From: a virus
Lineage: Duplodnaviria; Heunggongvirae; Uroviricota; Caudoviricetes
Length of the DNA: 38,628 nt
Virus record (IMG/VR): IMGVR_UViG_2711768037_000009
Location: 1-38,628 of that record
Direction: 5' to 3' (one strand)
How positions within the stretch are numbered: position 1 is the first letter of the stretch; each line of letters opens with the position of its first letter. Below are positions 1 through 14,540 of this stretch, piece by piece. A program made the translations under genes and the position numbers. The notes below the pieces were generated by a model that saw nothing but the letters and a program-made list of their open reading frames with translations, was not told the DNA's origin and made no database searches.

Positions 1-259
1 TGAAGGTTCTGACAAACTGCTACGCCTGACGCTGGATCTCGGCGGCGAAAAGCGTAATGTCTTCTCCGGCATTCGTTCTGCCTACCCGGATCCGCAGGCA
101 CTGATTGGTCGTCACACCATTATGGTGGCTAACCTGGCACCACGTAAAATGCGCTTCGGTATCTCTGAAGGCATGGTGATGGCTGCTGGCCCTGGCGGGA
201 AAGATATCTTCCTGTTAAGCCCGGATGTCGGTGCTAAACCTGGCCACCAGGTTAAGTAA
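1..259 (+). CDS. metG: 3' end of methionyl-tRNA synthetase (C-terminal tRNA-binding domain); partial, start lies outside window
   Basis: Open frame from window edge to TAA at 257-259; translation ...[85 protein letters not shown] matches my recollection of the enterobacterial MetG C-terminus. Confidence 0.85.
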
Positions 260-279
260 TTAAGCAACCATTCTTCACA

Positions 280-860: not shown

Positions 861-1430
861 ATGGATGTGATGGAAACCAATAACCGACATACAAAACCTT
901 TGAATAACATTTATGCGTGGATTTTAGCTTTTATTCCAATTTGCTTCGGCATTCCGAACGAAGAGTATGCAAATTATGCTGCATTAATTGGAAGTTTAGC
1001 TGCCATCGGATTATTAGTGGCTGACAGAATGGCGATTTCGGAATCCGGCTATGAGCCACCTGCTATTTTATGGGGAATAGTTCTCATGCCAGTCTACCTA
1101 TGGAAGCGCGCGACTATAACGAAGAGCAGCAGACTACCATTTATTATAGTCGTTGCCTTGATGGCTGGTCTTGTCTTCATTGTCATACCGAAACAGGAAG
1201 ATAGTGTCATTGAGGACGCAGCCTGCCCTGTTGTGACAACTATTCTGAAAGAACATAATGGTTCTACTGCGGCAAAATGCATCAAGGTTAAAATTGACGA
1301 CAAGGTAACTGATAAGTTCTACAGAGCAACTGCTACACTGGATAATGGTAATGATATAAACATAACACTGGAGCTTGCCGGTAGAGAGAAATTGTATGTC
1401 CGTGTGCCAGGTGTTTATTTGAACGATTAA
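861..1430 (+). CDS. Predicted multi-pass inner-membrane protein (189 aa), function unknown
   Basis: ATG start; three to four hydrophobic helices (AWILAFIPICFGI, AALIGSLAAIGLLVA, ILWGIVLMPVYLW, LPFIIVVALMAGLVFIVI) followed by ~90-aa soluble C-terminal domain. Confidence 0.6.
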   Translation: MDVMETNNRHTKPLNNIYAWILAFIPICFGIPNEEYANYAALIGSLAAIGLLVADRMAISESGYEPPAILWGIVLMPVYLWKRATITKSSRLPFIIVVALMAGLVFIVIPKQEDSVIEDAACPVVTTILKEHNGSTAAKCIKVKIDDKVTDKFYRATATLDNGNDINITLELAGREKLYVRVPGVYLND

Positions 1431-1564
1431 CGGATAAAAACATTGATAATGGCGGTCACAATTTGATTCTTTTCTATAAGAATCCGTTGATCGCCACTAC
1501 TCCCCTTCCATACCTGCAATCACATCCTTAAATATCAATAGGTTAACGTTGTTTATACAAATAA

Positions 1565-1582
1565 GAAAACAACTAAATAACA
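1565..1582. repeat. Direct repeat AAAACAACTAAATAACA, copy 1 (copy 2 at ~1795-1811)
   Basis: Identical 17-bp word found twice ~230 bp apart in the ORF-poor region. Confidence 0.5.
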
Positions 1583-1794
1583 GTTCAACGAAACGTCAAC
1601 GCTTTCTCCCGATTTGGTCTAAAAATTGACGTTTTCACACATCACTTCTTATACCCGTAATCTACGCAGCAGACAGCGCCACAGCGTCCAATTTTCACCA
1701 CAGACGCCCCAACACACTACCAACAAAAACACACGCTCAAAATCTCTCCCGTTGCGTTACACAACCATATAAACAACTTATTTTCAGGCATAAC

Positions 1795-1811
1795 AAAACA
1801 ACTAAATAACA
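1795..1811. repeat. Direct repeat AAAACAACTAAATAACA, copy 2
   Basis: Identical to the word at ~1565-1582. Confidence 0.5.
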
Positions 1812-1830
1812 CATATGCCATTCCCCAAAA

Positions 1831-1925
1831 CAACCAACCTCTTTATGGCAGGCTACCGAAAAGACCCACCTCTTCTCCCAGGCTACCGGACAACCAACCT
1901 AACTTTCACAGGCAATCCGAAAACA
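1831..1925. repeat. Iteron-like tandem repeats, cluster 1 (3 copies, ~30-bp period, core CCTCTT-N5-CAGGCTACCG)
   Basis: CAGGCTACCG at ~1849 and ~1879, degenerate CAGGCAATCCG at ~1909; CCTCTT/CCTAAC at ~1838, 1869, 1898. Confidence 0.5.
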
Positions 1926-2425
1926 TTCATACGCGCGATACCCACGACACGCCATTCCCCAAACAGCGAAGCAACACCTGAACCACTGAAACCCCAACGA
2001 AGTCTGTAACCGCAAGGATTCTCTCAATCCCAAAAGACACGAAACATAACAATCACGGGAAACGCCATTACCCAATACACGAACAACTACAAAAGCCTTT
2101 CACACGCACTCCAGACAAACAACTCAAACACAATAACGAAAGGAATCGCCCACCTGCCATTACTCCACACACGGAGAAGAACAATCACCAAAACGATGAG
2201 AACACCCCATAGAAGAACCACCGCAAAACGAACGAAACCACATACACCGACAGAGAGAACAACACACCCAATTCACCAACAGAATTAGTCGCCGTATAGA
2301 ACGTTCTGGAAGGAGTGAGCATTAACGCCTATAGAGAGGTTGAGACAGATAAAACATAACATGTATAGCGAAGAAGCCAGGTATGTATAACTAAGAAATA
2401 CACAACATGTATAAGCTGGGAGGGA

Positions 2426-2449
2426 AGGAGGGGTGTCGCCTCCTTTTTC
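2426..2449 (+). terminator. Intrinsic terminator ending a rightward transcript of the A+C-rich region
   Basis: AGGAGG-ggtgtcg-CCTCCT hairpin followed by TTTTT. Confidence 0.5.
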
Positions 2450-2496
2450 GTATTTATTCAACATCTTACCATCATCCCCCGTATCCCCTACGGTCA

Positions 2497-2700
2497 TCCT
2501 TCGGTCCATACAGGGAAAAGGCTGCATCCCGCTACAAAAACGGCTGGGTTGCCTTCGGGAAACGGTCGAGTTGCCTGTGTGGATTTCGGGAAAAGGCTCG
2601 ATGCCGGTTCAGGAACGGCGGCGTACCGGTATAGCGAGAGGGAGAGTTGCGGCTGGCCACCTGCAATGTTCGGGAAGAAGAGAGGCGCTCACGTGAAGGC
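2497..2700. other. GC-rich block with repeated TTCGGGAAA(A)GGCT-type motifs; candidate structured RNA or protein-binding array
   Basis: Motif variants at ~2510, 2553, 2583, 2669 and 2793; only overlapping six-frame ORFs without RBS. Confidence 0.3.
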
Positions 2701-2955
2701 GAACCTACTTACCGCTGGATTCCCTCTGAATGCCCAGTTACAGCGTAATTGTGCCAGACAGCCAACGGGTCACAATCGATTTCAGTAGGTTTTCGGGGAG
2801 ATGATTATTCTGCCCACCAGCCATCTTCGGCCACTAAATCAGAATAATGTAAAAGTGTACTCTGTACTGAACCTGAAAACTCACTGCCAAAACCACATTC
2901 ACCGGAATAAAATCCTTTTTCGCCTGTGCGTTATTGCGATAATAACACCATTAAG

Positions 2956-2968
2956 AAAACATCTTGTT
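2956..2968. promoter_or_regulatory. AAACA-TCT-TGTTT palindrome just upstream of the RBS of the 2982 gene
   Basis: Member of the AAACA-N3-TGTTT family; coordinates +/-2. Confidence 0.35.
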
Positions 2969-2981
2969 TAAGGATTGCTTT

Positions 2982-3311
2982 ATGTTTGCAAATATCGACA
3001 TCAACCAAATTAAGAAATTGACTCAAAAAGAGTTTGACCAGTTTTATGAGCTGGAAGGTTGGTCTTCCACTCTGATTAATTCAAGATGGGTGCTGGAGCT
3101 GATGACTCGTGATGATGCACCTGCTTTGATGATTAGCGACCTGGGTGATGATGCTGACTTTATGGATATGAGCGAATTTTGTGTGGACACATACAACCGC
3201 AGCCAGAAGTACTACTTCACATGCGATAGCGAAAATGACGTGATTTCTAAGGTCTATCTTCACCTCGTCCAGCATTGGGACGTTCAGGAGTTTCTTGAGG
3301 TATTCGCGTAA
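2982..3311 (+). CDS. Small acidic protein (110 aa), function unknown
   Basis: ORF track 2964..3311; ATG at residue 7 preceded by AAGGA; about 21 Asp+Glu against 8 Lys+Arg. Confidence 0.6.
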   Translation: MFANIDINQIKKLTQKEFDQFYELEGWSSTLINSRWVLELMTRDDAPALMISDLGDDADFMDMSEFCVDTYNRSQKYYFTCDSENDVISKVYLHLVQHWDVQEFLEVFA

Positions 3312-3441
3312 CCCCAACCAAAGCCAGCATTGCTGGCTTAATTTCATCTGTAGCCGCAGGGAAGAACCTGCATATCGCTCATGCGCCTGATCAATATGCT
3401 TTGTAGCCGTTTTCTTACTGGTATTATTTACGCAATTGAGA

Positions 3442-3454
3442 AAACAAGTTATTT
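3442..3454. promoter_or_regulatory. AAACA-AGT-TATTT motif (one mismatch) upstream of the 3466 gene
   Basis: AAACA-N3-TGTTT family member overlapping the 5' leader. Confidence 0.3.
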
Positions 3455-3465
3455 ACGAGGTTGTG

Positions 3466-3777
3466 ATGGATAAGTCACTGATACTGGGGCTGGACAAAGA
3501 CCAGAAGAGAAAAGAGAAGCCTGCACTGGTTGCTCAATTAACTTTGCTGGACATCGTTGCCAATGGAACCTCTATTCGTCTGTTCCGTGAAACAGCGGTG
3601 TCTTTCGATAAAAACACTTTTACTCGTTATGTAATGAATGTTCGTCGCCAGCGTGGAAAAGGCTGGATGGCATTTCAAAGAATGTGGCCGGAACATCAGC
3701 TGGAACTGGCTTTGATGGAAGTAAACCGCGTGGCCCAGCAAGAAATTCAGAGAGCATCAGTGATGGCAATAGCCTGA
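3466..3777 (+). CDS. Hypothetical protein (103 aa)
   Basis: ORF track 3436..3777; ATG at 3466 preceded by GAGG. Confidence 0.6.
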   Translation: MDKSLILGLDKDQKRKEKPALVAQLTLLDIVANGTSIRLFRETAVSFDKNTFTRYVMNVRRQRGKGWMAFQRMWPEHQLELALMEVNRVAQQEIQRASVMAIA

Positions 3778-3811
3778 TAATGTGCAAGTGGTAATTAGTC
3801 GACAGTACGAC

Positions 3812-3839
3812 AGCCCCGCCATCCTTACGGGGCTTTTTT
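3812..3839 (+). terminator. Intrinsic terminator
   Basis: AGCCCCG-ccatcctta-CGGGGCT hairpin followed by TTTTTT. Confidence 0.7.
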
Positions 3840-3903
3840 GTATTGTAGGTGCATACCTATGACTATAAAATAGAAAAATAACTAAGACACTACGGAGAGT
3901 GAA

Positions 3904-4299
3904 ATGACCGTTAAACGCGAAAAACTGACAGTTGATGTTTACTATGCCTCTGAAACCGCCGAAGGTAAGAATGTGGCAAAAATCACCGTTGTTACGTACA
4001 ACACCGAAACTGGTGCCGAAGTACAGGCCAGTACGATCGTGCGTAAAGGTGATGCCTCCGGCGGAGAGTACGCGACTCAATACCAGTCCATTCTCGATGC
4101 AACTGACCCGCTGCTGCTGAAAATCGAGAACTACTTCCGCCAGGTTGATGAAGAGGTGTTTGAAACCATGATGAGTATGGTTAATTCCGTATTCACCTCC
4201 AGTCTGAACACCAGCACCACCTGGATTGGTCAGTACGGCCTGCGCATTACCTCTGGCATTCCTGCCGACACCTTAATCCCTGAAAGCGTATTCGCTTAA
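3904..4299 (+). CDS. Hypothetical protein (131 aa)
   Basis: ATG start preceded by GGAGAG; bracketed by terminators. Confidence 0.65.
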   Translation: MTVKREKLTVDVYYASETAEGKNVAKITVVTYNTETGAEVQASTIVRKGDASGGEYATQYQSILDATDPLLLKIENYFRQVDEEVFETMMSMVNSVFTSSLNTSTTWIGQYGLRITSGIPADTLIPESVFA

Positions 4300-4308
4300 T
4301 CCTCTTTG

Positions 4309-4336
4309 AATGGCGCGTAAACCGCGCCATTTTATT
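4309..4336 (+). terminator. Intrinsic terminator
   Basis: ATGGCGCG-taaac-CGCGCCAT hairpin followed by TTTATT. Confidence 0.75.
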
Positions 4337-4344
4337 ATGCCCGA

Positions 4345-4357
4345 TAACAATTTGTTT
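4345..4357. promoter_or_regulatory. TAACAATTTGTTTT motif, near-identical to the copy at 342-356
   Basis: AACA-ATT-TGTTT followed by the same TCTGC as at 357-361. Confidence 0.4.
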
Positions 4358-4523
4358 TCTGCCTTATCTGATTTGTGAAAATGATTTCACTGAAGCAACT
4401 TAATAAGGAAACCATCATGGACTTGATATCTATATCGAGACGCAGCCTAAAAACGATCTGAATAACGAGGCATCCAGAAAGCAGGTTGCTTACTTCCGTA
4501 AGTTCAATGCGCTCGTTGGGTGG

Positions 4524-4790
4524 ATGGAGCGCAACGTAGGTGAAGTCGAAAATTGTGAGCTTTTAGAATTAACGATGAATGACATTTGTCTTCTGAAAGC
4601 TCATTTGATGCACATAAACGAAAGCAATTGCGAAGAGTACTTGCCTACTCGGGAAGGTTTTTTCTTCGGCAGTCAGGAGTACGACGAAGGTTACTGGCAT
4701 GACGTGGATAAGCTGAAAAAACTTGTGGAAGACCTGATCAGGAACCACGACTTTCACAATAACAGACTGACCTTCTGCGCCTGGTGGTAA
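4524..4790 (+). CDS. Hypothetical protein (88 aa); true start uncertain
   Basis: ATG at 4524 with poor SD spacing; same frame is open upstream to ~4407 without an ATG; a strong RBS (AAGGA) at ~4405 serves a 14-codon ORF in another frame. Confidence 0.5.
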   Translation: MERNVGEVENCELLELTMNDICLLKAHLMHINESNCEEYLPTREGFFFGSQEYDEGYWHDVDKLKKLVEDLIRNHDFHNNRLTFCAWW

Positions 4791-4793
4791 ATA

Positions 4794-4937
4794 TGGGCGA
4801 TTTCAAGAAACGCCTGAAGGAAAGAGCCGAGATGGTCAGAAAGCAAAACGCATCTTCTGTCATCAGATACGCAAGGCTGTTTAGTCGCAACAACAAATCA
4901 GTTGAGGAAAAGATCCTTAGCGTAATCGGACGATAAT
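4794..4937 (+). CDS. Possible small basic protein (47 aa)
   Basis: ATG 4 nt after the previous stop, GGTGG upstream; below the ORF-track size cut-off. Confidence 0.3.
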
Positions 4938-4942
4938 TATTA

Positions 4943-4972
4943 AGGCCATCAGCATTGGTGGTCTTAAATGAC
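4943..4972. repeat. Degenerate copy of hairpin element AGGCCAYCAG...TGGTGGYCTTAAATGAC
   Basis: ~30-bp similarity to the perfect hairpin at ~5483-5514. Confidence 0.35.
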
Positions 4973-5110
4973 TTTTAATAACCGAAGGTTAGTTTGAAAC
5001 CTGGCTATCAACTTCCAGAACCTTTCTTGTGTATTCAGCCTGTATTAACTTCTTTTATGCCTTATCTACACTGCGATAATTACACCAACAAGAAAACAAG
5101 AGGAAAGCAG

Positions 5111-5308
5111 ATGAAAACTATTACTCAAGTCCAGCAAATCTGGGCGCAGCTGGCAAATGAGCCTGTGGATAACAATCAGCAGCTTGAGCGCGCATTTCAC
5201 CATTTTGAAGCCGGTGACAGCATCATTGACGTGTGGGTGTGGATCGACGGGCTGTGTCCAGATATCACCGTTGCCCAGTTGCAGCAGGTGGGGAGGCACG
5301 ATGACTGA
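5111..5308 (+). CDS. Hypothetical protein (66 aa)
   Basis: ORF track 4994..5308; ATG at 5111 preceded by AGGAAAG. Confidence 0.5.
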   Translation: MKTITQVQQIWAQLANEPVDNNQQLERAFHHFEAGDSIIDVWVWIDGLCPDITVAQLQQVGRHDD

Positions 5309-5350
5309 TTTCACCATTACCCCAAAAGCACAAAATGTATTCCTTGAATC

Positions 5351-5515
5351 ATGGCTGAATTTGCCGCATTAAGTGAGAGTATTACGATGGCAAAATTGAC
5401 CAGAGCGCAGGAGCATGACCTGCGACGCGCAATTTATGATCTTGAAAGAGTTCGTTGCAGCACATCGAAAGCAATGAGATATAGGCCACCAGTTAACGCT
5501 GGTGGCCTTAAATGA
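5351..5515 (+). CDS. Possible small protein (42-54 aa; ATG at 5351 or 5387)
   Basis: Open frame ending in TGA inside the downstream hairpin element; weak RBS. Confidence 0.25.
   Translation: MAEFAALSESITMAKLTRAQEHDLRRAIYDLERVRCSTSKAMRYRPPVNAGGLK
5483..5508 (+). other. Perfect 10-bp-stem hairpin AGGCCACCAG-ttaacg-CTGGTGGCCT; terminator-like but no U-tract
   Basis: Seen directly; related words at ~4943 and ~6200. Confidence 0.45.
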
Positions 5516-5527
5516 CCATCCTGTTCC

Positions 5528-5604
5528 CCGCAGGCTAAAAACACCAACCTCTTACCTCCAGGCAACCGACAAACCTACCTGTTCCCGTCCGGCTACCGCA
5601 ACTT
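5528..5604. repeat. Iteron-like tandem repeats, cluster 2 (3 copies, same family and orientation as cluster 1)
   Basis: GCAGGCTAAAA, CCAACCTCTTACCTCCAGGCAACCG, CCTACCTGTTCCCGTCCGGCTACCG. Confidence 0.5.
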
Positions 5605-5651
5605 ACCACTTTGACGCCTTATTCGTACAACGATAATTAACACCAGCAAGA

Positions 5652-5664
5652 AAACAATTTGTTA
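5652..5664. promoter_or_regulatory. AAACA-ATT-TGTTA motif upstream of the 5685 gene
   Basis: AAACA-N3-TGTTT family, one mismatch. Confidence 0.35.
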
Positions 5665-5684
5665 TTTACGATAAGGAATTAATC

Positions 5685-6167
5685 ATGAATTTTATCGCTA
5701 CTGTAAACGCACCCGCACATGGCAATATCGCAGTAACGTTCTCTGACATTGAAAAACGAGTACTTGGTGCATGGCGCGACAATGAGACGGTAGAACTGTC
5801 AGCACAAGAAAAATGCATTATTGCACGTGACATCATTGGTAATCGTCGTTACTCGCGGGTATTTGAGAAAGCGTATGTGGTAAATTCTGGATTCGGAACG
5901 TTCGTCTTTCCGGTGCGCTCCGGGCGATTCTGCCAGTCCAAGCTGATTGAGTTCGCTACGCAGATTTCTGTCTGGATTAAAACTCAATCGTCGTTCAAAT
6001 TTTCCGACGATGAAGCAGTATCGCAGGGGATGCAGATCGCCAACAATGCGATTAAATGCAAAAACATTACGTATGCCGCTGGCGTTGACACATGGAAACT
6101 GTTTTGCGCTAACTTTATGCTGAATGTATACGCAAGCAACCGCATCCACATCCTTGATGGCGTGTAA
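5685..6167 (+). CDS. Hypothetical protein (160 aa)
   Basis: ATG preceded by AAGGA at 8-nt spacing; followed by a terminator. Confidence 0.65.
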   Translation: MNFIATVNAPAHGNIAVTFSDIEKRVLGAWRDNETVELSAQEKCIIARDIIGNRRYSRVFEKAYVVNSGFGTFVFPVRSGRFCQSKLIEFATQISVWIKTQSSFKFSDDEAVSQGMQIANNAIKCKNITYAAGVDTWKLFCANFMLNVYASNRIHILDGV

Positions 6168-6175
6168 CTGAGAAG

Positions 6176-6199
6176 AGGGCCAGAAACGGCCCTTTCTCT
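6176..6199 (+). terminator. Intrinsic terminator
   Basis: AGGGCC-agaaac-GGCCCT hairpin followed by TTCTCT. Confidence 0.55.
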
Positions 6200-6251
6200 A
6201 TAGCCACCAGTTGCCGCAGGGAAATTTTCAGAAACGGCAAGGAACGCATTC

Positions 6252-6560
6252 ATGAGCCGACGGGAAACGGCCAGGATTTTTTCGGGAAACGGCGGCATTC
6301 GCCTTGATGTAGAAAAACATCGGGAAGCTGGTGGAATCCAACCAGCGGCTGTCGGACAGGTGAGCGGGGAAAATTATGATGACTTTCGTCGCCCGAGACA
6401 TCCAGATTTCTTTCGTAGCGTAATCACATACGTGATTAATTGGTGTGATTATGTGAGAAATCACGCGCACATAATACGCGAGCGGATACAGAACAAAACA
6501 AAATGCCGATCCGCGCCGACAATTAAACGCGGATCACATAGCAAGACAAAAAGCCAATGA
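6252..6560 (+). CDS. Doubtful ORF (102 aa, Arg-rich) in a region dense with inverted repeats
   Basis: ATG with AAGGA upstream, but atypical composition and overlapping palindromes. Confidence 0.25.
   Translation: MSRRETARIFSGNGGIRLDVEKHREAGGIQPAAVGQVSGENYDDFRRPRHPDFFRSVITYVINWCDYVRNHAHIIRERIQNKTKCRSAPTIKRGSHSKTKSQ
6420..6540. promoter_or_regulatory. Cluster of inverted repeats (ATCAC/GTGAT words, ATTATGTG-N12-CACATAAT, GATCCGCG-N12-CGCGGATC); candidate operator or origin
   Basis: Several dyad symmetries within ~120 bp in the convergent intergenic region. Confidence 0.3.
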
Positions 6561-6758
6561 TTAACTATGCGCTATAGCGCAATATAACGCGTTTTAAGCG
6601 CATTAATGTGTTAAGTAATGGGTATGTACTGGCAAGGATATAAAAGCGCGTCTATGGCGTTATTTTGGTGCTTGTTTTTATGTTGTTGGAGTGAGTCAAA
6701 GACAATAAAAAACGCGCTAATGATGGCGCGTTATGGTGGGAGTATTGGAAACGAAAAA

Positions 6759-6777
6759 AGCGCCCACTATGGGCGCT
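6759..6777. terminator. Bidirectional intrinsic terminator
   Basis: AGCGCCC-actat-GGGCGCT hairpin flanked by A-run upstream and T-run downstream. Confidence 0.65.
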
Positions 6778-6782
6778 CGATT

Positions 6783-7013
6783 TTATTTGTGTAAACTGAT
6801 TTTAAATCCCATTTCTACAAACGCTTTTAACATTAAAAATATATCAGCGTCGTTCACGTCTGCTTTTTTTCGCTCCTGGTCGCTCAATAAGTCAATTTTG
6901 CGCGTCGTTTCATCTATAAGCTCGACTGCGCGCCCAGCGTAACCAGCGATCCCAGCGATGCGATTAACATAATATTCATTATGGACGTTAACGCCAGCGA
7001 TAAGAACAAACAT
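6783..7013 (-). CDS. Small protein (76 aa), unknown
   Basis: ATG preceded by perfect SD AAGGAG at 8-nt spacing. Confidence 0.6.
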   Translation of the reverse strand: MFVLIAGVNVHNEYYVNRIAGIAGYAGRAVELIDETTRKIDLLSDQERKKADVNDADIFLMLKAFVEMGFKISLHK

Positions 7014-8231: not shown

Positions 8232-8756
8232 TTAAAACGGAAGGATTCGTTCAACCCAATCGAAGAAAACAAGTATTTTTCTTCCGTCTTTCAACTTAAG
8301 AGTGACCTGACAAGCATCAACGCCTCTTGATACCCCTTCTATTTCACGACCGTCTGCCATGTAGACCCTTATAGATTGGTCGTTTTGATAAGCCTTGCGA
8401 CATATCGCAAAAAAGTCACGGCGTGATGGCTGATTGTCAACATAGTCTGGATGTATTGTTAGCCTACCTTTGAACTCGCGAGCAATGCCATCGATTACAC
8501 CTGATTCAATTGTGCTAATGCGCTCAAGTGGGAGTCTTATACGATTTTCTTTATCATATGGAAGCGGGCATAAATCTAGCTTATTGCGGGAAGGCATTGT
8601 CCCCTGAACGTACATGCAAAACACCTGACCGTCTTCAAGCGTGACTCTTACAGGAATGTTGTTCTTCCGCCAGAACATAAGTATGTTTTCAGCATGTTCG
8701 TAGTCTCGCGGCCAGACTTCAGCCGGTATGCCGTAGGTGATGTCCAATGTTCTCAT
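8232..8756 (-). CDS. Hypothetical protein (174 aa) with two similar beta-rich segments
   Basis: ATG start; start overlaps the stop of the upstream gene; no domain recognised. Confidence 0.6.
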   Translation of the reverse strand: MRTLDITYGIPAEVWPRDYEHAENILMFWRKNNIPVRVTLEDGQVFCMYVQGTMPSRNKLDLCPLPYDKENRIRLPLERISTIESGVIDGIAREFKGRLTIHPDYVDNQPSRRDFFAICRKAYQNDQSIRVYMADGREIEGVSRGVDACQVTLKLKDGRKILVFFDWVERILPF

Positions 8757-12527: not shown

Positions 12528-12556
12528 GTAACTACTTAGTGGAATGTAGCAATAAA

Positions 12557-13237
12557 ATGGACGTAAAAATCACGATTTTGCAGGTTGATGTTGCCAACCT
12601 TCGCCCGAATACCTGGAACACCAATTCGGTTGGTGCGCAGAATTTCGAAAAACTGAAAGGTTCTATCGAAAAATTGGGCTTTTTTAAGCCAATTTTGGCT
12701 CGTGAGCTTGAAGATGGATTTTTTGAAATCCTCGGCGGCGAACATCGCTGGCGTGCTGCTATTGAGCAAGGAATTTCAACGGTTCCTGTGCTTTCTGTGG
12801 GCAAAATTAGCGATGTCGTGGCAAAACAGATGTCACTGGTGGACAACGAGCGATACGGTGAAGACGACCAAATCGCATTGCAACGCTTCATTGAAGAAAT
12901 TCAGTCAGAACTTGACTATCAACTGTCTGAAATCGCCCCGTATGACGACGAAATCTCGATGGTTTTAGCAAAAGAGGCGGCAATCGACCTTGAAGCACTG
13001 GAGGCGTTGTCTCGTGGTAGTGATGAGCCTGTCGATACCGACAAACGAGAGAAAACCGAACGTGTGGGTGCGGAACATCAGACCATGCGCTTCAAAGTAA
13101 CTTTCGATGCGTCAGATCGTGTTGCAGAAACCATAAAAAACATCATCAAAGAGCAGGCTATTAACACCGGTAATGAAATGGAGAACGCTGGTGAGGCTCT
13201 GGTGTGGCTGGTCGACTACTACAAGGAGCGTATGTAA
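12557..13237 (+). CDS. ParB/Srx-superfamily (ParB-like nuclease domain) protein 1
   Basis: ORF track 12539..13237; ATG at 12557; ParB-box-like GGEHRWRAA. Confidence 0.7.
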   Translation: MDVKITILQVDVANLRPNTWNTNSVGAQNFEKLKGSIEKLGFFKPILARELEDGFFEILGGEHRWRAAIEQGISTVPVLSVGKISDVVAKQMSLVDNERYGEDDQIALQRFIEEIQSELDYQLSEIAPYDDEISMVLAKEAAIDLEALEALSRGSDEPVDTDKREKTERVGAEHQTMRFKVTFDASDRVAETIKNIIKEQAINTGNEMENAGEALVWLVDYYKERM

Positions 13238-13905
13238 TGACCAAAAAGTTTGAAATCGTATATCGCGACCCGGCAGATCTTATTCCCTATGAGATGAATG
13301 CCAAAAAGCATGATGAACAGCAGATCCGAGATCTAGCCGCAGCCATTAAAAAGCGCGGATTTGACCAGCCAATTACGGTCGATAAGAACGACGTAATTAT
13401 TACTGGCCACGGCCGCCGTGAGGCTGCAATTTTTGCTGGACTTGAGCGCGTACCGGTTATTGTTCGCGATGATCTCAGTGATGACGAGGTTCGTGCGAAG
13501 CGCCTTGAAGATAACCGACTTGCCAGCATTGATTACGATGCAATTAAGCTACAGAAAGAGCTTGAGTCGCTTGTTCTGGACGATATCGAGGTTTTCGGCT
13601 TTGAAGAGCGTGAGTTGAATGTTCTCGTTGGCAGCATGACAGAAGAAATGGACACCGACTCGCTAGTTATCGATCTTGGCGAAGAAACTAAACGACAGAA
13701 GGATGAACACACCGAGATCAGTCGCGAAGTTGCAGCGGAAGAAGTACGTGTTGTCGACGTATTGGGCTTTAAAACGCTTCCTGCTGGCTCTGCCATTGTT
13801 GTTGGTGATTTGCTTGCCCACATGGAAGAAATGACGGGAGAAAGCGGGGTAGACGCATTTGTGGCATATGCGGAGAAGATCTCTTCCGGGGAGATGGCTG
13901 CATGA
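13237..13905 (+). CDS. ParB/Srx-superfamily (ParB-like nuclease domain) protein 2
   Basis: ATG overlaps the upstream TAA; AAGGAG at 9-nt spacing; ParB-box-like GHGRREAA. Confidence 0.7.
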   Translation: MTKKFEIVYRDPADLIPYEMNAKKHDEQQIRDLAAAIKKRGFDQPITVDKNDVIITGHGRREAAIFAGLERVPVIVRDDLSDDEVRAKRLEDNRLASIDYDAIKLQKELESLVLDDIEVFGFEERELNVLVGSMTEEMDTDSLVIDLGEETKRQKDEHTEISREVAAEEVRVVDVLGFKTLPAGSAIVVGDLLAHMEEMTGESGVDAFVAYAEKISSGEMAA

Positions 13906-14540
13906 GCAAATACATCATCAACGTATCGTTTCAGACTCGCGTAAATAAAACCACGCGCACGCTGGAAATCGCCGAGTCGTTCGGGCTTGGCTTGGACGAA
14001 AAAGAGTGGACGCTTTACGACAATCTGGAGCTGGAAGTGAAGCAGGGCGATGTGGTGTACATCACCGGCCAATCCGGTTCCGGCAAATCCGTTGTGCTGC
14101 GCGAGTTGCAACGACAGATGAAGGATGAAGGGCTGTCTGTAGCCTCCATCGATGATTTTACCTTCGATAATGAGGTTAACGTCATCGATCAGTTGGGCAA
14201 AACGACCAGTGGTGCGCTTGGGTTGTTATCTATGGCTGGTCTGAACGATGCATATCTGTTTGTTCGCAAGCCTTCTGAAATGTCAGACGGTCAGAAATAT
14301 CGTCTCAAGATTGCCAAACTGATTGAGTCAGGCGCTAAAGTGTGGGCTGCTGACGAGTTCGGGGCTGTTCTAGACCGTGTAACCGCTCAGGTTGTGGCAT
14401 CTAACCTCCAGCGTGCCGCTCGAAAGGTTGGTGCGACGGTAATGGTGGCGACGACTCACGAAGACCTGAAGAACGCGCTGCGCCCGGATATGCAGATCAC
14501 CAAGCACTACAAAGAACGCGTGAAGGTGGAATATGCCTGA
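13902..14540 (+). CDS. Minimal ABC-type ATPase (212 aa)
   Basis: Walker A GQSGSGKS, signature-like SDGQK, Walker B VWAADEF, H-loop TTHE; start overlaps upstream stop. Confidence 0.7.
   Translation: MSKYIINVSFQTRVNKTTRTLEIAESFGLGLDEKEWTLYDNLELEVKQGDVVYITGQSGSGKSVVLRELQRQMKDEGLSVASIDDFTFDNEVNVIDQLGKTTSGALGLLSMAGLNDAYLFVRKPSEMSDGQKYRLKIAKLIESGAKVWAADEFGAVLDRVTAQVVASNLQRAARKVGATVMVATTHEDLKNALRPDMQITKHYKERVKVEYA

Follow-up and report, generated by a model that had tools for sequence, protein, structure and literature searches.

A family-wide non-coding control region with an A+C-rich tract ahead of the early operon of SSU5-type phage-plasmids

What is the role of some 1.5 kb without genes that directly precedes the early operon of a phage-plasmid? 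This question is raised by positions 1440-2960 of a 38,628-nt stretch of viral DNA (IMG/VR record IMGVR_UViG_2711768037_000009; hereafter the window), for which an earlier reading of the bare sequence (hereafter the original prediction) had proposed either a long non-coding RNA or a replication origin, partition site or packaging site. The window opens within the 3' end of metG, here a plasmid-borne gene, continues with small early genes, and then passes into those for terminase, portal, capsid and tail proteins. Since region 1440-2960 found matches at ~70% identity in 838 plasmids (i.e., Klebsiella 430, Escherichia 224, Enterobacter 90, Salmonella 49, Citrobacter 25, and Cronobacter 9) and in Salmonella phage SSU5, the window was assigned to an SSU5/pHCM2-type phage-plasmid. 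The closest counterparts included Escherichia phage Cyrano (92.7% match) and E. coli plasmid NZ_CP027369 (97.6%), and among 5,426 complete E. coli genomes, 240 had the region on a plasmid and none on a chromosome. Alignments of 10 and then 37 non-redundant relatives placed it among the most conserved non-coding DNA of the SSU5 family, and no published description of it was found in the literature. It is a real, family-wide and uncharacterised non-coding control region, and a composite of modules rather than a single element. Its parts are of known kinds (operators, an untranslated tract of the Rho type, and phased site arrays), the most unusual being 630 bp that appear to be selected on base composition.

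The absence of genes from this ~1.5 kb, as originally predicted, was borne out by a coding test against six relatives, in which mismatches were equal across the three codon phases, codon periodicity was lacking, and most indels were not multiples of 3 (5-9 such indels per comparison). A conserved coding frame in homologues, which the original prediction had named as the finding that would count against it, was likewise not seen among these six, nor was any third-position bias, so that a protein-coding reading is excluded. Moreover, the Prokaryotic Genome Annotation Pipeline (PGAP) called no gene here in the 30 E. coli plasmid records listed, of the 240 matching, and the small open reading frames (ORFs) annotated in the corresponding region of Cyrano and SSU5 were not conserved, which agrees with the earlier view of the six-frame ORFs as artifacts. 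The Rfam scan and covariation analysis proposed alongside that view were also carried out. At gathering thresholds, the Rfam 15 covariance models matched nowhere in the window; by E-value, two sub-threshold matches at chance level appeared in 1300-3100, and a tRNA/tmRNA scan yielded none. With RNAalifold, base pairs were sparse for the + strand and more numerous for the G/U-rich minus strand, but the covariation of the latter stemmed mostly from a single clade split in a poorly aligned stretch, and a minus-strand RNA structure was rejected.

At the heart of the region lies a tract (1660-2290, + strand) composed of 40% A, 34% C, 12% G and 14% T. The top strand had been judged by eye to be roughly three-quarters A+C, and indeed A+C amounts to 0.70-0.78 in each 100-nt window across 1651-2250, with the best 600-nt window (0.737) lying ~6 standard deviations above the window-wide mean of 0.498 (standard deviation of 0.038); the G+C content of the tract is 43-49%. 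The + strand RNA is near structure-free (minimum free energy of -73 kcal/mol for 629 nt), and its C/G ratio is 2.0-4.2 in eight consecutive 78-nt windows (1635-2258). The tract holds 4 start-like triplets vs. 35.7 +/- 5.7 elsewhere, and no Shine-Dalgarno-like pentamer. It thereby shows two sequence-level marks of a Rho utilization (rut) region, i.e., an excess of C over G across ~80 nt or more and RNA that is unstructured and untranslated. Because the RNA is unstructured, C-rich, G-poor, and poor in starts and Shine-Dalgarno sequences, it is expected to stay naked and to resemble a Rho substrate, in line with the Rho-type RNA of the original prediction.

This make-up is a property of the family, since the A+C maximum per 500 nt was 0.67-0.75 in the 37 non-redundant relatives. 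The filler between the conserved islands described below was 0.56-0.63 identical to distant relatives vs. a composition-only baseline of 0.49-0.50, a retained signal about equal to that of the saturated four-fold degenerate sites of neighbouring genes (0.38 identical). Furthermore, A-to-C and C-to-A exchanges made up 26% of the variant types in the tract vs. 12% in the GC-rich block further downstream. Together, these alignments suggest that selection in the tract acts mainly on composition.

Set into this filler are islands of conserved sequence. The most conserved of these consists of three tandem ~30-bp units of the form ACCnACCTCTT..CAGGCTACCGAAAAG (1833-1923, + strand; period 30, 3.0 copies and 73% matches in Tandem Repeats Finder), with 0.78-0.87 identity to distant relatives over 1840-1884. 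The three tandem iterons of the original prediction thus exist, although more convincing iterons were found in the GC-rich block (see below). The recurring GCCATT(A/C)CCC words, too, are real. In the slightly wider form GCCATT(A/C)C(C/T)C (i.e., GCCATTMCYC), they occur on the + strand at 1817, 1951, 2064 and 2156 (span 1817-2165), and match 5 times in the window vs. 0.24 expected. Three copies extend to GCCATTACyCaATAcACGGAGAAGAAC. The words are irregularly spaced, number 2-6 copies per relative, and in the relatives the GCCATTACCC words lie nearly all on the + strand. A second conserved island closes the tract at its 3' end (2155-2290, + strand), where identity to distant relatives is mostly 0.73-0.93; in one Klebsiella relative it is only 0.42-0.62 over 2200-2289. 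The repeats, i.e., the 30-mers, the words and the arrays discussed below, are thus conserved in the family.

The tract is preceded by an entry block (1443-1660) that begins with a conserved nested palindrome (block A, 1443-1500; outer arms 1450-1458/1488-1496, inner arms 1465-1471/1478-1484), situated at the exact junction of conserved DNA with the variable cargo genes. Block A folds at -19.3 kcal/mol (z-score of -3.3) and has an information content of 1.2-1.9 bits per column among the 37 representatives. The only GATC site in 1400-3000 (at 1489, vs. ~6 expected) lies within this palindrome, its rarity being largely a base-composition effect. Further on, a degenerate copy of the early promoter/operator module (1540-1582, + strand; family consensus ..AtAAGAAAACAAaTAAATAACA) carries AAGAAAACAA at 1563-1572. 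A leftward promoter-like site, TTGACG-16-TTTAGT (1572-1600, - strand), was detected by position-weight-matrix scan in 9 of 10 relatives; this putative promoter overlaps the direct repeat TCAACG-N2-TCAACG (1586-1600). Finally, a putative rightward promoter, TTGACG-18-TATACC (hereafter P1; 1626-1655, + strand), was present in 37/37 representatives with invariant hexamers, fixed spacing and free spacer sequence. P1 is predicted to be weak because its -10 hexamer is without the usual final T.

The module of which the entry block holds a degenerate copy lies at the proximal early promoter (2935-2970, + strand), where an extended -10 element TGCGATAAT (2935-2943) is followed by the operator AAAACATCTTGTTTA (2956-2970) and by the ATG of the first early gene at 2982. 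Further instances of this promoter/operator module lie 5' of two early-region genes (5114 and 5685) and at the late-operon head (~16.1 kb), and the AAGAAAACAA motif family is located just 3' of the extended -10 promoters (TGCGATAAT) at 2935, 5068, 5626 and the late-operon head. Underlying these sites is the palindrome AAAACAA-N-TTGTTTT (AAAACAANTTGTTTT, allowing at most two mismatches), which has 9 matches in the window vs. 0.54 expected (among them 342, 1770, 2956, 3441, 4344, 5651, 16077 and 16102), lies just 3' of extended -10 promoters (TGCGATAAT plus AACACC) on both strands, and also marks the head of the late (terminase) operon. To judge from this placement, AAAACAA-N-TTGTTTT is probably the operator set of the main repressor of the element. 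Within the tract itself, an operator-like palindrome TAAACAACTTATTTT (1770-1784; 35/37 representatives) is followed by a half-site and by the second copy of a direct repeat (1561-1582 and 1790-1811). The original prediction had listed this repeat as 17 bp long; it is present, but measures 16 nt exactly or 22 nt at 95%, and it belongs to the operator family common to early and late promoters.

In having one operator motif over many promoters, including the region and the late-operon head, this network is like plasmid-prophage immunity networks (i.e., the C1 operators of bacteriophage P1 and its P53-controlled lytic replicon), and by analogy the same repressor may control a cis element in the region. 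Unlike in bacteriophage P1, the operator AAAACAA-N-TTGTTTT and the genes are unrelated to those of that phage, and no repressor was recognised in the window, candidates for the role being the S24-peptidase protein, CYRAN_45 of Cyrano and the FljA-like protein.

Downstream of the tract lies a variable segment (2330-2412), in which the lineage of the window has inserted DNA, missing from distant relatives, that includes a direct repeat of 17 nt (2351-2367 and 2397-2413). A purine-rich run and a hairpin follow (2412-2449, + strand; hairpin at 2422-2449). The intrinsic terminator predicted here was confirmed as a hairpin with a T-run in the lineage of the window, but it makes a good terminator in some lineages only: a hairpin follows the tract in all lineages, in shifted registers, with a T-rich tail in the E. 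coli and Klebsiella types and without it in the SSU5 type. An anti-terminator in which the CCUCUU repeats pair with the hairpin's purine arm was rejected, as this pairing was no better than that of shuffled tracts.

Whether the tract is transcribed could be approached via per-gene RNA-seq data on LF82/Cyrano lysogens (ten samples; PMC9928086 supplement), Cyrano carrying a region 92.7% identical to that of the window. In these data, an ORF over window positions ~1549-1905 was at the floor (log2 fragments per kilobase per million (FPKM) of 2.32) in both baseline samples and at most 3.6 in nine of ten samples, the remaining one reading 4.27. It stayed low while the first early gene rose up to 7.5-7.8 log2 FPKM. 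The cargo gene directly 5' of the region was highly expressed (log2 FPKM 6-9). Since the upstream gene is high and the tract ORF is at or near the floor, rightward transcription in lysogens seems to get no further than the start of the tract, with the proviso that these values are per gene, neither positional nor strand-resolved, and refer to lysogen conditions. There is no abundant tract RNA in the LF82/Cyrano lysogen conditions sampled, and the abundant sponge RNA that the original prediction had entertained did not materialise there.

From these features we infer, tentatively and with rather less than even confidence, that the tract is a cis-acting, Rho-loading transcription barrier or leader that shields the early lytic operon. 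That operon must remain silent in the plasmid state. RNA would reach the tract either by read-through from co-directional cargo genes active in lysogeny or from P1, the entry block combining this presumably weak promoter with copies of the operator of the early and late promoters. RNA crossing the 630 nt would stay naked, offering few starts, no ribosome-binding site and little structure; Rho would engage it and bring RNA polymerase to a halt no later than the 2422-2449 hairpin, and the early operon would then be driven solely by its own repressor-controlled promoter at 2935-2970. The filler could drift and yet keep its make-up because the requirement would be compositional. In favour of such a barrier, nearly all of the genome, the cargo hot spot included, is transcribed on one strand towards this point, the tract is situated between the early operon and cargo genes that vary among relatives (encoding an HD-domain protein, a membrane protein, a GIY-YIG nuclease, a type I restriction system or lysozyme inhibitors) and that are mostly co-directional with that operon, and the direction of its skew fits rightward transcripts only. 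Like Rho-dependent terminators and rut regions such as lambda tR1 or the Rho attenuators in long 5' leaders, the tract would yield C-rich, G-poor, unstructured and untranslated RNA, and it is placed where transcription must stop ahead of a regulated operon.

Several points weigh against this barrier. Both the Rho dependence of termination and the entry of transcripts into the tract are putative, and since the first ~350 nt are at the floor in the LF82 data, termination could occur before the tract, e.g., at block A. In the Klebsiella lineage the upstream genes point away, yet the tract is fully kept (A+C 0.71-0.72). Its 630 nt far exceed the ~80-100 nt of C-rich, G-poor RNA that Rho needs, and, unlike in rut regions of that size, there is A-richness, conserved islands, oriented repeats and a family-wide composition. 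A need for Rho leaves the A-richness and the conserved islands (the 30-mers, the GCCATTACCC words and 2155-2290) unexplained. Finally, a conserved P1 firing into a terminator zone implies regulated read-through, of which none was found.

The presence of P1 itself could instead indicate a discrete, ~0.8-kb, A/C-rich and structure-free long non-coding RNA, made early in lytic growth from P1 to the 2422-2449 hairpin and acting in trans on a host factor that binds single-stranded RNA (e.g., Rho), which it would titrate, or on G/U-rich RNAs, with which it would pair. We consider this unlikely, albeit with real points in its favour: P1, with fixed hexamers and a free spacer as in a promoter, is kept in 37/37 representatives, operator copies on both sides of it would account for silence in the lysogen, a hairpin or terminator marks the 3' end, the repeated words all share one orientation, and the conserved islands argue for sequence-specific recognition. 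Nevertheless, the tract ORF remained low in all RNA-seq samples but one, even with the first early gene at its highest, the P1 -10 lacks its key final T, the hairpin of the SSU5 lineage has no U-tract, no Rfam family matches, and Rho would translocate along such an RNA and release it rather than be trapped.

Comparison with known sponges did not help this RNA either. The tract is long, non-coding and little structured, with short words repeated on one strand, and in this it is like the protein-sponge RNAs CsrB/RsmZ and CrcZ; unlike them, it has no GGA or A-R-N enrichment and is not abundant in the lysogen RNA-seq, and its words (GCCATTACCC and ACCTCTT..CAGGCTACCG) match no known protein-binding motif. 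A CsrA sponge was rejected, as GGA occurs 5 times vs. 3.8 expected and only one of three window copies retains the CsrA-like ACACGGAG word. The Hfq decoy of the original prediction, which would use the distal face, failed as well: A-R-N runs (at least 3) cover 18 nt vs. 38 +/- 17 in shuffles. For a GcvB sponge, complementarity to its presumed G/U-rich seed sequence gave the same duplex energy as shuffles.

Beyond the hairpin, the GC-rich motif block of the original prediction was recovered at 2500-2700 (GC 0.56-0.59). It holds an array of cGGGAAAmGGc sites in a single orientation (Array 1, 2513-2680, + strand), with exact copies at 2513, 2557 and 2588 and degenerate ones at ~2535, ~2610 and ~2668. 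Their spacing is 22/31/44 bp, and relatives have up to 6 copies at 44-22-31-22-52 bp. The same sites reappear directly 3' of the early-operon terminator (6178-6199, + strand) as Array 2 (6217-6320, + strand; conserved in SSU5 and pKPHS1), with exact copies at 6262 and 6284, 22 bp apart. Across 41 related 14-kb loci, exact cGGGAAAmGGc was limited to the + strand of these two clusters, save two minus-strand matches in total. Since the motif is confined to these clusters, which have the same orientation and are separated by 3.6 kb in all lineages, the early operon (2982-6167) is bracketed by the two arrays throughout the lineages examined, SSU5 and pKPHS1 among them. In other viral contigs, the same site pair was found essentially in the SSU5 family alone, apart from likely chance matches. 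Moreover, the spacings of 22, 31, 44 and 52 bp correspond to whole numbers of helical turns, so that the arrays consist, like iterons, of same-orientation direct repeats. As the RNA of the GC-rich block was no more structured than shuffles on either strand (z-scores of +0.9 and +1.8), a reading at the DNA level is preferred, and with fair confidence the arrays are predicted to be protein-binding sites. Alongside the transcription barrier proposed for the tract, they would bind a phage protein and either bracket or loop the early operon or act as cis sites for lytic replication; their predicted role may thus be lytic replication or looping and silencing of that operon.

Array 2 lies in a second non-coding region after the early operon (6170-6790), in which we noted, in order, the terminator, Array 2, Chi-like words flanking the array, AATCAC/GTGATT inverted repeats, GCGC-rich palindromes and bidirectional terminators. 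A 102-aa ORF overlapping it (6252-6560) looks spurious.

The similarity to iterons raises the alternative that the region is a cis-acting DNA element for lytic replication, with Arrays 1 and 2 as a bipartite set of iterons bound by a phage initiator. The site would be activated by repressor-controlled transcription starting at P1, and the A/C strand would serve as the structure-free loading strand for helicase and primase. Bipartite origins are known from P4 (ori/crr) and SPP1 (oriL/oriR). The arrays are like the iteron clusters of these origins, being short same-orientation repeats at intervals of two to five helical turns that form two clusters separated by a few kb. The phasing at multiples of ~10.5-11 bp, the 22-bp spacing typical of iteron origins, and the constant 3.6-kb distance between the clusters all speak for this alternative. 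The element also encodes its own DnaE, DnaB-like helicase, primase and RNase HI (rnhA), with no known lytic origin and with its plasmid origin elsewhere, and the strong conservation of the region is as expected for an essential cis site. Unlike iteron origins, the arrays have no AT-rich unwinding element on either side (their flanks are 36-58% G+C and the tract itself is 43-49%), no DnaA boxes and a single IHF-like match. No adjacent initiator gene was recognised either, the early proteins matching only families of unknown function and having no fold assignment; for the conserved 160-aa protein encoded next to Array 2, a structure model of high confidence had no fold match, and the relatives found through this protein were all of the SSU5 family. 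In addition, no origin is known to require a filler that is defined by composition and not by sequence. The whole-genome GC skew is monotonic, without an origin-like switch here. On balance, a lytic origin seems improbable too.

The exact bracketing of the early operon by the arrays, one 5' of the promoter and one just after the terminator, and the fact that each follows a terminator-like hairpin, would suit a purely regulatory role, in which the arrays are coated by a small DNA-binding protein of the phage, ParB-like or of the Cox/Apl type, that loops or silences the early operon between them, with the tract as a spacer. Two ParB-N-domain proteins encoded ~10 kb away could supply such a protein. 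This reading is quite unlikely, as Array 1 lies 270-450 bp from the early promoter without overlap, ParB sites are usually palindromes, no ParA partner is found next to the arrays, and the compositional constraint on 630 bp is left unexplained. The two ParB-N-domain genes are adjacent (12539-14540), are followed by ABC-type ATPase genes just 5' of the terminase genes, and neither a ParA-type partner nor a palindromic parS was seen.

Very unlikely is the notion that the tract gives a family-wide, repressor-controlled, ~0.8-kb RNA that consists nearly entirely of A and C, and hence is incapable of folding or translation, is made early in lytic growth and soaks up Rho or another host single-strand RNA-binding factor; if true, it would be an RNA-based host-takeover or anti-termination device, of a sort so far known to us only as proteins, e.g., Psu. 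The remaining suggestions of the original prediction fell away more readily. A plasmid replication origin is excluded, because a RepB-type initiator with its own, different iterons (GTATGCTGTCAGCGGT) is situated ~35 kb away. A partition centromere was rejected, there being no ParA-type gene beside either array and the ParB-N-domain genes lying ~10 kb off, beside those for terminase. Packaging is likewise an unlikely role for the site, since the terminase genes start from ~16.2 kb (13 kb away) and the linear record of SSU5 ends just 5' of them, though record ends may be conventional.

Some further features of the element were noted on the way. A Chi site GCTGGTGG between Array 1 and the early promoter (2814-2821, - strand) is kept in several relatives. 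The window has 9 Chi sites (GCTGGTGG at 2814, 5498, 6327, 11141, 15851, 26694, 29525, 29773 and 33964) vs. 0.73 expected, a ~12-fold excess that suggests adaptation to the RecBCD enzyme of the host. At 8232-8756 (- strand), the window encodes a 174-aa protein with a full-length match to Pfam Flag1_repress (FljA, the post-transcriptional repressor of phase-1 flagellin; E = 5.7e-81). A weak, sub-threshold Hfq/LSM-like match was noted at the C-terminus, and the protein is conserved in SSU5 (SSU5_121) and relatives. Judging from this homology, the phage-plasmid may use it to switch off host flagellin. Because this FljA-family protein is encoded here, the 5' leader of fliC was compared with the region. 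The leader has TGAGCCGACGGG in common with one Array 2 site and ACCCAATAC with the sequence at 2070, but overall k-mer sharing was at chance level and the link is at most a lead.

Just 5' of the region (window 1-260 and three relatives), full-length host-type housekeeping genes occur, namely metG (methionyl-tRNA synthetase) and apbC/mrp; elsewhere, the phage-plasmid carries nrdAB, thyA and the trimethoprim-resistance gene dfrA51, next to dnaE, rnhA, and the DnaB-like helicase and primase genes. Two Klebsiella IncHI1B/IncFIB plasmids (190-229 kb) that are not phage-plasmids contain, at 4600-5750 of their loci, the first ~750 nt of a pKPHS1-type region together with the adjacent DUF262 and type I restriction genes. 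The 450-nt match in these large plasmids is thus apparently a recombination remnant of a pKPHS1-type element.

SSU5-type phage-plasmids are common, and some carry resistance genes. Despite its strong conservation, their control region is left blank in annotations or is filled with spurious ORFs. It offers several handles for experiment, i.e., an operator motif common to early and late promoters, a pair of arrays bracketing the early operon, and a tract that appears to be selected on composition. If the Rho barrier is true, the region would be an example of a mobile element insulating its lytic switch from adjoining cargo; if instead the RNA or the origin reading is true, it would represent a new design of either kind.

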